Shown piece after piece: positions 28,299 through 31,765 of a stretch of DNA of 31,765 bases. Source of the DNA: a virus (Duplodnaviria > Caudoviricetes); IMG/VR virus record IMGVR_UViG_3300042196_000013, positions 1-31,765 of that record. One strand, written 5' to 3'. Both the position numbers and the translations under genes were made by a program. The notes under the pieces were generated by a model. It had not been told where the DNA came from, searched no databases, and was given only the letters and a program-made list of their open reading frames with translations. The stretch's first letter is position 1. Each line of letters begins with the position of its first letter.

Positions 28299-28318
28299 GA
28301 TATAAGCTCCTAAAATTG

Positions 28319-28341
28319 AAAAGCCCCGCGAATGCGAGGCT
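28319..28341 (-). terminator. terminator-like hairpin before small terminase
   Basis: AGCCTCGC-ATTC-GCGGGGCT-TTT on the minus strand. Confidence 0.6.
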
Positions 28342-28349
28342 GTAAATGC

Positions 28350-28379
28350 AAAAAGCCCGACTCGTTAGAATCAGGCTTT
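28350..28379 (-). terminator. terminator-like hairpin downstream of late promoter (tR'-like)
   Basis: AAAGCCTGATTC-TAAC-GAGTCGGGCTTTTT on the minus strand. Confidence 0.65.
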
Positions 28380-28413
28380 ACGTTTCTTTGGGCGCAACTT
28401 CGCCCGTGCGAGA

Positions 28414-28442
28414 ATTAGACCATAGTTTTTAGCTATCGTCAA
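28414..28442 (-). promoter_or_regulatory. putative late promoter (pR'-like) TTGACG-N17-TCTAAT
   Basis: -35 at 28442-28437, -10 at 28419-28414 preceded by TGn; lies between the Q-like gene and two terminators. Confidence 0.6.
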
Positions 28443-28569
28443 TAAATGAACTTACATGTAATTACTATGATTGCCACCGCTCCGAAGTCTATTCCGGCGT
28501 CCATCATGCCGGATGATTCTCCGAATGCCTCTCGCTTCGTCCCTGTCAGCTTGCGCCATACGAGTCTAA

Positions 28570-28899
28570 TCACACCAACCCCCTTCTATCTGCCATCAGC
28601 AACAAATTATCCAGCGCGTCAAGGTAAGCCGCTTCAATATCGCGCATCCGATACACCGCATGCAGCCATTTGTGATGTATGGCGCAGGATTGACTAGGCG
28701 GCAGGCTGTCTATCATCGCGTCCAAGGTAATAGCGTTGTCGGTGTCCATGTCGTCGCACATGTACTCAAACGCATCAGCGCAGGCCGATCCTCCTGACGC
28801 AATGCACAGGCTCTTAGCTGGATAGCCGAGTTTATGGGATGGTTGGCGCATGTACTGCACCCAGTTGGATAGGTGTTCCTCAAGTCGCGCCAGGTCCAT
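28570..28899 (-). CDS. antitermination protein Q-like late regulator
   Basis: L.NWVQYMR...LGYP...LDAMIDSLP...AI pattern; GGGGAG RBS; position upstream of promoter/terminators and terminase. Confidence 0.6.
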   Translation of the reverse strand: MDLARLEEHLSNWVQYMRQPSHKLGYPAKSLCIASGGSACADAFEYMCDDMDTDNAITLDAMIDSLPPSQSCAIHHKWLHAVYRMRDIEAAYLDALDNLLLMADRRGLV

Positions 28900-28930
28900 G
28901 CAGTCTCCCCTTGTAGTTATCCTTGGCCAT

Positions 28931-29086
28931 CTATTTACAGCAATCCGCGCAATGCCACTGATACCGCCGCCCGTTGTCCTTCGGCACCTCAACTCCCCCG
29001 GCTCTGGGCTTTGATTGCCGGCAGCGCATGCACATGCGTTGACCGTGCTGTATTGGCGGGCGGTTGTGGCGTTCATCAAAGATCAT
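28931..29086 (-). CDS. 51-aa zinc-ribbon protein MIFDERHNRPPIQHGQRMCMRCRQSK...WHCADCCK (not in ORF track)
   Basis: Hand translation; two CxxC pairs; GGGGAG RBS. Confidence 0.65.
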   Translation of the reverse strand: MIFDERHNRPPIQHGQRMCMRCRQSKPRAGGVEVPKDNGRRYQWHCADCCK

Positions 29087-29150
29087 TGCTCCCCCGTAGG
29101 TGTGTTTGTTGGGATAGGCACCTGTTTAGGTGCCTACTCTTAGTTGTGCG

Positions 29151-29843
29151 TCAAAGCAGCGCCTCCTGCACCGCCGCCGGTTTCTCAGCCGGCGGCAGCA
29201 GTTGGCCCTGCGCCTGTGCCCGCGAAATCCGCTCGCAGGCAATGTCAAAGTATTTGCGCTCGCGTTCCACGCCGTAGAAAGCCCGCCCTTGCATCGCGCA
29301 CGCCACGCCCGTTGTCCCGCTGCCCATAAACGGGTCGCAAACCGTGTCGGCTTCAGGCACCAAGCCAAGGCACCACGCCATCAGTTGCAGCGGCTTCTGG
29401 GTCGGGTGCTCGGTTCCGCCGTCAGCTTGCAGCGCCACCCGGTTCAAGGTGTAGGCGCGCATCGGAAATTCAAAGCTCGTCCACGCCAGTTCGCCGTCGC
29501 TCATCGTCAGCCCTCGCTGGCCTTTGTCCCAAAACAGCCAGCCCTTTGTCGGGTGCGGCAGCTTGTCGGTGAAGTAATTGCCACCCCACACAATCTGGCC
29601 GTCGCTCTTGTAGCGCAGCAGTTCAAAAACAAGGCGCTCCGGCGTCTCGTTGTCCCATCCAAGGAAGTCGTGGGCCTTTCTGTTGTGCTTCGGGTTGCGG
29701 TTCGTGCTTTGCTTCTGCCCGTCAATGCCTATGCCATAGGGCGGGTCGGTCAGCACCAGCGCCACATGCGGCAGCAACGGCAAAACCTCGCGGCAGTCCC
29801 CGTGCCACAACTCTGCATCCCCTATCACTACTTTTTCCGCCAC
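29151..29843 (-). CDS. DNA methyltransferase, N6-adenine/N4-cytosine, beta class (GTG start 29843)
   Basis: LWHGDC, TDPPYG (motif IV) before HPTQKP and DPFMGSGTTG (motif I); AAAGGA RBS. Confidence 0.92.
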   Translation of the reverse strand: MAEKVVIGDAELWHGDCREVLPLLPHVALVLTDPPYGIGIDGQKQSTNRNPKHNRKAHDFLGWDNETPERLVFELLRYKSDGQIVWGGNYFTDKLPHPTKGWLFWDKGQRGLTMSDGELAWTSFEFPMRAYTLNRVALQADGGTEHPTQKPLQLMAWCLGLVPEADTVCDPFMGSGTTGVACAMQGRAFYGVERERKYFDIACERISRAQAQGQLLPPAEKPAAVQEALL

Positions 29844-29893
29844 TTCGTTTCCTTTCTTCGCCGTACCGCCAGCGCCGACTTTTACCGTTTGAC

Positions 29894-29962
29894 GCACAAC
29901 CCGTCATTGCAAGGGACCGTGCGCAAGAAGCCGCGCCCGGCCCCTGAATTCAGGCGTTGGGC
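29894..29962 (+). repeat. attC site 1 (69 bp)
   Basis: GCACAAC-CCGTC-ATTGCAAGGGAC...GCCCCTGAAT-TCAGGC-GTTGGGC. Confidence 0.8.
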
Positions 29963-29988
29963 CAATAACAAACCAAGGAGGCTTTGCC

Positions 29989-30213
29989 ATGAAGCAATAC
30001 AAAGACATCAATCATGATTCTAGCGTTTCAGCATACGAATACACCGATACCAGCATCCGCGTTCAATTCAAAACTGGGAAAATATATGAATACCCAGAAT
30101 CTAAAATTGGTTCTACACACTTAAACAACATGAAGCGTCTAGCCGAATCAGGCGATGGTCTAAACGCCTATATCATGAACAACGATGCAGTCAAAAATGG
30201 TTTTTCTCGCTAA
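29989..30213 (+). CDS. small KTSC-like protein, AT-rich cassette gene
   Basis: SSVSAYEY...IRVQFKTGKIYEY...MKRLAESGDGLNAYI; AAGGAGG RBS shortly after the GTTGGGC core site. Confidence 0.7.
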   Translation: MKQYKDINHDSSVSAYEYTDTSIRVQFKTGKIYEYPESKIGSTHLNNMKRLAESGDGLNAYIMNNDAVKNGFSR

Positions 30214-30377
30214 AACCTTGGCACACGTTGCACAGTTGTTATGCCCTCCATAAACACAGTTTTTTCGCTATCAACAATCGCAGTTACATGCGGGTGGCAG
30301 TTATCGCGCAGCCATTGCATCAGTGGTTTTGTTAAAGCATCAAGTTCAGCTAGGTTTTCGTCTGTCAGTTCCATCAT
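30210..30377 (-). CDS. 55-aa phage-type protein MMELTDENLAELDALTKPLMQWLRDNCHPHVTAIVDSE... (not in ORF track)
   Basis: Hand translation; GAAAGG RBS right after attC2; its stop overlaps the stop of the convergent + gene. Confidence 0.7.
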   Translation of the reverse strand: MMELTDENLAELDALTKPLMQWLRDNCHPHVTAIVDSEKTVFMEGITTVQRVPRF

Positions 30378-30389
30378 GTACCTTTCTCG

Positions 30390-30461
30390 GGCTAACCCTT
30401 CGTTCCAGGGGACAGTCCAAAAGCTTCGCTTTTGTCCTCCCCCTGAACTTGAACGTTATGC
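30390..30461 (+). repeat. attC site 2 (72 bp)
   Basis: GGCTAAC-CCTTC-GTT[C]CAGGGG...CCCCTGAAC-TTGAAC-GTTATGC. Confidence 0.85.
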
Positions 30462-30626
30462 ACTGCGGTGAGGGGCCACCGGTCGCCCGGCTTCCTGGTT
30501 GCGTTCGTATTCCTCACACTGCGCCCAGTAGATGTTCCAGGAGTGCGCGAGAAACGGATCATTCAGCGGCGGCAGTTTCCACCCTTTTTCGGTTGCCAAC
30601 TGGTACAGCCTTAAGTCATATTGCAT
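30456..30626 (-). CDS. 56-aa hypothetical cassette protein (MQYDLRLYQLATEKGW...)
   Basis: GAGGAG RBS; TAA stop lies inside the core site of attC2. Confidence 0.7.
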   Translation of the reverse strand: MQYDLRLYQLATEKGWKLPPLNDPFLAHSWNIYWAQCEEYERNQEAGRPVAPHRSA

Positions 30627-30647
30627 ATCGCTCTCCTCTGGTTCCGT

Positions 30648-30708
30648 GCATAACAAATCAGTCAAGCGGGACTGCGCTATGCGCAGCCCCTTACCTCATG
30701 CGTTAGAG
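30648..30708 (+). repeat. attC site 3 (61 bp)
   Basis: GCATAAC-AAATCA-GT[C]AAG[C]GGG[A]CTGCGC-TAT-GCGCAG-CCCCTTAC-CTCATGC-GTTAGAG. Confidence 0.88.
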
Positions 30709-30923
30709 CGCATCCAGTTGTTGCGGAATCCCCTTGCCCACGATGCCGTATAAACGAACGTCAGCGCCAGAATCCCCCACTGCTCGGCAACGAACGCCGA
30801 GTAGAACCAGAACGGTTGTCCGGCCAACCCGAACACGCTCGCCCACTTGCGCCAGCCCTCCCGCTGGTCATTCGCCAGCCAGATCGCAACGCACCCTGTT
30901 ACCGCTATCGCTAGTTGTTCCAC
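30696..30923 (-). CDS. 75-aa multi-pass membrane protein, cassette gene
   Basis: About three hydrophobic segments; GLAGQPFWFY..EQWG; AAAGGA RBS, GTG start; ends inside attC3. Confidence 0.75.
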   Translation of the reverse strand: MEQLAIAVTGCVAIWLANDQREGWRKWASVFGLAGQPFWFYSAFVAEQWGILALTFVYTASWARGFRNNWMRSNA

Positions 30924-30951
30924 TGCATTCCTTTCTTCGTTGGTGCTGGCG

Positions 30952-31008
30952 CTCTAACCCGGCAGTCCAGCGGACGCCGTGCCGGCGCCGCTGACTTCTG
31001 CGTTATGC
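30952..31008 (+). repeat. attC site 4 (57 bp)
   Basis: CTCTAAC-CCGGC-AGT[C]CAGCGG[A]CGCCG-TGC-CGGCG-CCGCTG-ACT-TCTGC-GTTATGC, with canonical unpaired bases. Confidence 0.9.
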
Positions 31009-31009
31009 C

Positions 31010-31414
31010 TCACGCAATCATCTCCAGCGATCCCCCGCTGATATGCGCACGATGCTTTTTAAGCGGCTCAGAGCGATTAACGAAGTCCTCCGAGTAGTAC
31101 GCCCTACCTTCAGCCGGTTTAACCGCGCCATAGCCGCCCCACATCGCCACAGGGCTATTCTCCAACACTTCATCCGGGTTGAATTGCGACACGCGCCAGT
31201 ATTTCACCAGCGCGGCCCCGCGTTCAGCGCGCAATTTGCCCTCGTTGCGCAACAGGCTGATGTCGTTGAACAGCGTATCCTCGCGTACGCCCATGTCGGT
31301 CATCTGCGCGATGATCTCGTAGCGTGTCAGGCCTTGGGCCAGTTCCAGAATGCGGGCATGACGGGCTTTCTTGGCCACGGCCAGCTCGTCTTTGCGTTCT
31401 TGGGTGAAGCTCAT
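31010..31414 (-). CDS. hypothetical nin-region protein, possible winged HTH
   Basis: 134 aa; ATGA overlap with the upstream gene; ILELAQGLTRYEI...TLFNDISLLRNEGKL. Confidence 0.65.
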   Translation of the reverse strand: MSFTQERKDELAVAKKARHARILELAQGLTRYEIIAQMTDMGVREDTLFNDISLLRNEGKLRAERGAALVKYWRVSQFNPDEVLENSPVAMWGGYGAVKPAEGRAYYSEDFVNRSEPLKKHRAHISGGSLEMIA

Positions 31415-31665
31415 GCAAGTTCCTTTTTCGTATTTTCAACAACGTGCCAACCGGCGGCGCCATTCCATTCGCCCTTCTTTATGTGAATGATTACCCCAGA
31501 TTTCCGCAGGTATTGAATGCGCCCATCAATCACGCGCATATCGTCTCGACCTGTCGCCAGAGCGATTCGCTCCGACTCGGATACACAGTTGCGCTCGTAA
31601 AGCGGAGATTTCCTATTTCTCACCGCCGCGACAATCAACTTATCCAAAATGTCGTACTGACTCAT
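31411..31665 (-). CDS. hypothetical nin-region protein
   Basis: 84 aa; AAGGAGG RBS; RVIDGRIQYLRKSGVI...GW. Confidence 0.7.
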   Translation of the reverse strand: MSQYDILDKLIVAAVRNRKSPLYERNCVSESERIALATGRDDMRVIDGRIQYLRKSGVIIHIKKGEWNGAAGWHVVENTKKELA

Positions 31666-31765
31666 GCTGCCTCCTTTTTTAGTTTTCTGAGTTCTGCGCG
31701 GTAGTGGTCACGGATCTGGATTAGTTCTTCCTTGGTCCATCGCTTCGTCTGATTGTTGTTTTCAA
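31662..31765 (-). CDS. ninG: NinG/Rap-like protein, C-terminal fragment
   Basis: Open frame ENNNQTKRWTKEELIQIRDHYRAELRKLKKEAA* resembles NinG C-termini; position upstream of the Q-like gene. Confidence 0.6.
   Translation of the reverse strand, partial: ENNNQTKRWTKEELIQIRDHYRAELRKLKKEAA

Follow-up and report, generated by a model that had tools for sequence, protein, structure and literature searches.

A phage methyltransferase gene as the probable first cassette of a backwards integron-type array at an attI-type site

The closest described relatives of the locus considered here are integrase-less arrays of attC sites carried by phages. The main text and Table S4 of Qi et al. 2023 (PMC9892861) describe 17 such phage CALINs with five methyltransferase cassettes, three of them of the N6_N4 type. 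Of six phage attC sites, five proved recombinogenic with IntI1 and attI1. An anti-restriction role was proposed, and an attI heads one prophage CALIN, that of Shewanella M16-3. In the available text of a second report (bioRxiv 2022.09.11.507474), insertion takes place in trans at GWT sites, giving the attG/SALIN insertions. Chromosomal integrons of Betaproteobacteria and Methylococcales and the orphan beta-class N6_N4 methyltransferases of phages complete the set of systems against which the locus can be compared.

Our window, the whole stretch of DNA analysed, is 31,765 nucleotides long and makes up an entire linear IMG/VR record that is 88% complete. Its genes include those for a portal and a coat protein of P22-like type, terminase, lysozyme, ERF, YqaJ and SSB proteins, and its methyltransferase array is situated in a stretch of minus-strand genes that precedes the terminase gene. 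With the phage CALINs of Qi et al. (Tetrasphaera phage TJE1, for example) it shares an attC array without integrase and a methyltransferase as cargo, but the TJE1 cassette genes run in the ordinary direction whereas those of the window are inverted. The main text of that paper presents no general inverted class, conserved phage dock or core swapping, although its deposited annotation could show inverted cassettes; a literature search that mostly left subscription journals outside returned no description of an inverted phage cassette class or of this dock. The chromosomal integrons (L172, L185, L192) have in common with the window a palindrome followed by five nucleotides and G|TT, as well as the attC anatomy, yet in them intI lies at a distance of about 105 bp, a direct repeat stands upstream and most genes are ordinary in direction, whereas the phage dock has neither intI nor direct repeat and heads inverted genes. 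Insertions at attG resemble the proposed phage dock in relying on IntI in trans with no intI nearby, but attG, as set out in the available preprint text, is a short GWT consensus used in many places, whereas the phage dock is a long conserved site heading multi-cassette arrays. Finally, the orphan phage methyltransferases (phrog_67; CcrM and DpnA are distant) show the same DPPY to FxGxG-type motif order; unlike them, the window enzyme is packaged in a cassette whose ends are conserved and whose core can be exchanged. We put at roughly three in four the probability that the methyltransferase gene stands first among four cassettes in a backwards integron-type array and was docked at a phage attI-type site by a host IntI acting in trans.

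The first-pass annotation had described the gene as a precisely bounded, excisable cassette on the strength of two inverted 12-mers. Each has a single occurrence, at 29143 and 29889 respectively, and one is precisely the reverse complement of the other; their match in fact reaches 13 bp, pairing a left arm (29143-29155), which consists of the cassette R' core plus an extension and overlaps the methyltransferase stop, with a right arm (29888-29900, coordinates on the plus strand in both cases) that includes R'' of attC1. By itself, this repeat is no more than chance level: the window holds three 13-mer inverted pairs spaced 100-1500 bp apart against a mean of 1.2 in 40 Markov shuffles, 62.5% of which contain at least one. 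The repeat is significant because its arms are the R'' box of attC1 and the R box of the attI-type site. The bounds themselves hold up, with G|TT crossovers at 29143|29144 and 29956|29957 delimiting a unit of 813 bp (29144-29956, plus strand) that comprises the methyltransferase gene and attC1 and stands first in the array.

For a call, our structural detector demands AAC, a spacer of 5 nt, an L'' box carrying one additional base, an L' box that pairs, and GTT. It places four attC sites in the window (29894-29962, 30390-30461, 30648-30708 and 30952-31008), all with their top strand on plus, and none on the minus strand. It yields one hit in 373,579 shuffled bases and recovers the published TJE1 attC sites on the published strand; some attC sites are missed by it. 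The window sites possess R''-L''-L'-R' boxes, the extra base marking the top strand, and the head of cassette 1, of the GTTRRRY type, is complementary to its own R'' over 13 bp. The four cassettes measure 813, 499, 247 and 300 bp, and their heads match their tails over 13, 3, 9 and 10 bp respectively. Folding of attC2 to attC4 beats that of shuffled sequence (z -2.9 to -3.3); attC1 folds no better than its shuffles (z -1.07), its best bottom-strand fold still pairing the R and L boxes.

The left boundary is not a further attC but an attI-type site (29099-29149, plus strand). It consists of a GGTG element at 29099, a 9-6-9 palindrome at 29114-29137, a 5-nt spacer and the G|TT at 29143|29144. 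A decayed attC was considered and ruled out, there being no R''/L'' arm and no array leftward in any viral match. An initial motif search found four other viral records, all with attC to the right. A degenerate motif gave 22 viral matches in 16 left-flank clusters; as befits an attI, the G|TT crossover heads an attC array with no attC upstream in 21 of them, attC occurring to the left in none and on the opposite strand in none, and the 22nd offers only 216 bp of room. When the palindrome alone was searched as a control (47 matches), the 25 occurrences that lacked N5-GTT had attC within 1.5 kb in no case. Bacterial genomes contain 45 dock matches, many of them in Rhodocyclaceae, Sulfuriferula and Methylobacter, with attC within 1.5 kb rightward in 25. 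The dock also adjoins intI in integrons: 14 of the 45 have intI to the left, 12 of these starting 90-126 bp away, oriented away from the array, and all seven integrases tested beside bacterial docks lie above the TIGR02249 cut-off.

Viral and intI-linked docks are not the same in every respect. An upstream direct repeat is present in 14/14 intI-linked docks versus 0/22 viral ones, and the window lacks it as well; the inverted GGTG element occurs in 11/22 viral versus 0/14 intI-linked docks; and the spacer ends in AC in 3/22 versus 14/14. Because of these differences we name the dock attI-type and do not treat it as a proven substrate of the same IntI. Direct repeats are variable among attI sites, according to the available text of PMC3146285.

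Several further observations concern the dock. Among the bacterial matches (L155-L199), 31 of 45 have no intI in the locus and 20 of these retain the direct repeat upstream. Three such intI-less sites fall in a single assembly, NCGK01, and sites of this kind may be solo attI platforms in chromosomes. In phages (L082-L107) the location of the dock varies, by eye, from excisionase- or integrase-like genes to lysis-like genes to a P2-type portal region, and the dock, too, seems to have passed from one phage lineage to another. In one viral locus (L083:2500-2780), a cassette behind a near-identical palindrome opens almost as the methyltransferase cassette does but holds an unrelated 77-aa gene. 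A promoter scan of 28300-31765 produced one weak promoter-like match, at chance level and away from attI, and a role of the palindrome as terminator was not adopted, the scan being at chance level and the palindrome scoring like a terminator on the plus strand only. The gene to the left of the dock (28570-28899) has no confirmed relatives in viral contigs, and hence no empty-site relative was recovered. An Rfam search of the window gave 0 matches.

The gene inside cassette 1 encodes a beta-class N6_N4 DNA methyltransferase of 230 aa (29151-29843, minus strand, antisense to the attC top strand; phrog_67), matching PF01555 (N6_N4_Mtase) with 73 bits against a cut-off of 26.7 (E 4e-20). Assignment to the beta class is borne out by the sequence, in which the catalytic DPPY precedes an FxGxG-type SAM-binding motif; DPPY would favour an N6-adenine target. 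The longest open frame would start at GTG 29897, but the likelier start is GTG 29843, which follows AAAGGA. Relatives in the PDB, CcrM and DpnA among them, are distant (E 1e-15 to 1e-20), scores against curated families fall far under their cut-offs (62 versus 830 bits for CcrM, for example), and no restriction enzyme partner was found adjoining the gene. At the start of the record, 26-805, lies a gene cut at the record start that matches phosphoadenosine phosphosulfate reductase PHROGs (E 9e-39), a possible candidate DNA-modification gene.

The methyltransferase and most array genes lie on the minus strand, opposite the attC top strand, which places attC1 at the 5' end of the methyltransferase gene. 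Cassette 1 thus departs from the usual polarity, in which the gene lies on the attC top strand and ends at attC; that polarity is usual, not strictly defining. Since the genes are inverted, the integron promoter Pc would be unusable for them. The inversion recurs in other viruses: in the best 80 of 598 viral loci with a methyltransferase homologue, 106 of 107 attC sites are inverted and one is ordinary. Judged by longest open frame, cassette genes in viral arrays number 38 inverted, 5 ordinary and 11 unclear, versus 8, 45 and 18 in bacterial arrays. Six of the eight inverted bacterial genes sit in just two loci, L173 and L181, and the dock of L181 nearly equals that of the viral locus L095.

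Behind the methyltransferase cassette lie three others, all with the attC top strand on plus. Cassette 2 (29957-30455) ends in attC2, has a head-tail match limited to 3 bp, and holds both a 74-aa gene, AT-rich and oriented as is usual in integrons (29989-30213, plus), and a 55-aa gene on minus (30210-30377). It is likely a fusion of a host-type AT-rich cassette with a phage-type cassette, the intervening attC having been lost. The 74-aa gene has no Pfam match and may deserve a KTSC-like label; a homologue, 42% identical, is an ordinary-direction cassette in a bacterial genome (G128). Cassette 3 (30456-30702) carries a small minus-strand gene (open frame 30456-30665) and cassette 4 (30703-31002) a 75-aa membrane-protein gene, also on minus (30696-30923); their attC sites close them with end repeats of 9 and 10 bp, and one sequencing run (X2) covers cassette 4 without its flanks. 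The array terminates at 31003-31012 in a GTT head for which the record holds no matching tail rightward; possible origins of this head are the right half of the once empty site, since displaced, or an ancient cassette whose attC has been lost.

Where might the integrase come from? The window record, at its 88% completeness, yielded no TIGR02249 candidate, with no intI between the dock and the terminase gene, and no intI was found near any of the 22 viral docks. With four attC sites and no intI, the array answers to the definition of a CALIN, not to that of a complete integron with intI beside attI. Because none was found in the record, an integrase would have to act in trans.

Among 44 viral records searched with TIGR02249, one, G026, was above cut-off. 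This record (L005:1-4032 / L208:8900-17865) carries what looks like a complete integron, in which 12 attC sites in inverted orientation accompany at least three methyltransferase-like genes and a different attI-like site with two direct repeats; its intI, at the head of the array, is cut by the contig end and lies at the end of the early genes, a frequent place for a phage integrase. In another, G030 (L209:4420-5500), a truncated intI heads an eight-attC array with an inverted first cassette, possibly a step towards integrase-less arrays. Neither gave a terminase match, and the phage nature of the two is therefore judged from IMG/VR and from genes for replication and recombination, which in G026 are of phage type. 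In both, intI and the first cassette gene point the same way, which suggests that a single phage transcript covers the array in the direction of attI and then extends into intI.

We then asked what comparative data say about movement. Elsewhere the methyltransferase cassette recurs in other company: one locus (L215) carries a 92.9% match to 29143-29962, preceded by an attC on the left, in different surroundings on both sides. In seven runs besides the best holder, cover is confined to bins 29078-30003 around cassette 1, and contigs begin at 29143 in six. On this comparative evidence the cassette appears to move as a unit with G|TT ends. A 20-mer from its head has 26 matches in metagenomes, 11 of which follow a detected attC and three, by eye, an attI-like end; five were set aside as having no further likeness to the window. 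Conversely, one left flank can stand before different first cassettes. In the sets L090/L097, L091 versus L093/094/099/105, L093 versus L105, and L095/L181, 88-100% of the 60 left bases are common to both members, and the sequences diverge 4-11 bases past the G.

Association with attC extends to homologues. Near the best 80 of the 598 viral loci, attC was detected upstream in 26, downstream in 16, on both sides in 11, on either side in 31 and not at all in 49, so that the proposal does not founder on homologues that are never attC-linked. The best homologue from an annotated phage (MW202573, 52%) has no attC detected within 3.5 kb. On a tree of 67 rows, made up of the window and 66 of the 80 homologues (identical sequences, those below 150 aa, those with a stop inside and those with too short flanks were dropped), cassette status changes 14 times versus 22.5 times when shuffled and spans more than one clade, counts that are to be read with mosaic genes and detector misses in mind.

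Is the cassette also readily excisable, as originally proposed? The rule that the first cassette is the latest arrival (available text of PMC3146285) would make the methyltransferase, as first cassette, probably the newest arrival, and excision of a first cassette through attI x attC is less efficient (available text of PMC8876359). What stands of the proposal is the bounded unit; with a left end of attI type, "most recently docked" fits better than "readily excisable". Contigs of runs X1-X4, X6, X7, X9 and X10 contain no circle or deletion junction, bearing in mind that contigs drop rare variants and that X1 has a depth of about 6. A gap in X1 at 30331-30408 is not informative on deletion, and skip joints inside the methyltransferase gene had short sides and were not used.

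The idea that specificity is swapped by site-specific recombination likewise survives in part. The whole unit does recur with the same ends, but cores are also exchanged inside the gene. Two loci, L213 and L221, have left flanks identical over about 600 bp and first cassettes that are common only at their ends, their cores being 53-80% alike. The L213 core is 91-100% like that of the window behind another 5' leader; L221, conversely, combines a window-type 5' leader and attC (78-93%) with a different core. Such swaps imply crossovers inside the gene and so point to homologous recombination, and to judge from these alignments the methyltransferase core is likely exchanged in this way inside common cassette ends. 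In an intI-bearing locus (L222), the second cassette opens with the first 43 bases of the methyltransferase cassette head, at the 3' end of that cassette, followed after another GTT by an unrelated gene in the ordinary direction. This cassette, together with the 74-aa homologue in G128, hints at cassette traffic between host and phage.

These elements can be combined into a mechanism. IntI would recombine the folded bottom strand of attC with the phage site at G|TT, so that new cassettes enter adjoining attI. Because the cassette genes lie opposite the attC top strand, we propose that they would be expressed without an integron Pc, from a phage promoter whose transcript enters the array at its far end, proceeds to attI and continues into phage genes. 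Homologous recombination in conserved N- and C-terminal segments could then swap the enzyme core, ERF and YqaJ being phage-encoded, and cassette exit would be easiest once a cassette has been displaced to an inner position between two attC sites. The enzyme would methylate phage DNA, probably at adenine, and give protection from host restriction. Of this anti-restriction reading we are less sure than of the cassette mechanism.

Other explanations for the array deserve consideration. Imagine that the palindrome were bound not by a host IntI but by some other recombinase, Xer-like or a phage tyrosine recombinase, that exchanges cassettes there. Two arms around a 6-bp spacer do resemble tyrosine recombinase sites, and viral docks lack the upstream direct repeat and often have the inverted GGTG element instead. 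Yet the same core is found where integrons with integrases above the TIGR02249 cut-off have their attI, the crossover at GTT falls outside the palindrome, the attC sites have IntI-type anatomy, and the record holds no candidate in a TIGR02249 search that recovered other tyrosine recombinases in other records; we regard such an enzyme as improbable. Quite improbable, too, is a fossil origin, in which non-specific recombination took the array as a block out of a host chromosomal integron and site-specific exchange is not going on in phages. The missing integrase in cis, the lack of a circle in run contigs and the host-type gene in cassette 2 would all suit such an origin, and off-target or illegitimate recombination is what Qi et al. 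2023 (PMC9892861, main text) propose for phage CALINs. Against this, viral cassette genes are oriented opposite to bacterial ones and phages with the same left flank differ directly past G|TT. Moreover, a protein search of 301 genomes from the family of G044, which carries the same attI, found the methyltransferase in only one, there without attC. A DNA search for the cassette had 0 matches in four genomes, and none in the 301 with only two candidates per genome scored.

It would be more surprising still if the left end were a chance GWT secondary site (attG) hit by host IntI, with no dedicated dock. IntI1-3 do place cassettes at many genomic GWT sites (bioRxiv 2022.09.11.507474, available text), but that consensus is short, whereas the dock has a conserved 24-bp palindrome at a fixed distance and, in its 22 viral and 45 bacterial matches, is tied to arrays. 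A different challenge accepts the cassette mechanism and questions the enzyme, which might be broad or non-specific, or regulatory, and not a specificity-switching anti-restriction factor. Non-specific beta-class adenine methyltransferases of phages exist, and the characterised relatives of the window enzyme are distant and all far under curated cut-offs. We nonetheless think this alternative unlikely, though a more serious contender than the foregoing: many divergent cores occur in one cassette shell, and the several methyltransferase-like genes (at least three) in the single G026 array fit selection for varied targets.

Returning to the preferred reading, a docked cassette array served by host IntI, we offer a wider proposal that we hold tentatively, at a little under even odds. 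Many unrelated freshwater and wastewater phages would, with attI-derived docks of their own and host IntI, run a mirror-image cassette pool kept apart from that of the host by polarity, in which methyltransferases diversify at two levels, by exchange of whole cassettes at attI and of cores within a common shell, and which descended from intI-bearing phage integrons such as those of G026 and G030. The phage dock and the IntI proteins that adjoin its bacterial counterparts form a concrete testable pair that bears on who moves phage cassettes, and the cassette family is a natural library of methyltransferase cores within one scaffold. Bacterial integrons have been reported, in the literature available to us, to stock anti-phage genes; if the proposal is true, a phage counter-defence integron mirrors them. 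And if phages shuffle methyltransferases via host IntI, with a dock of their own and reversed polarity, a single recombination system serves both parties to the conflict.
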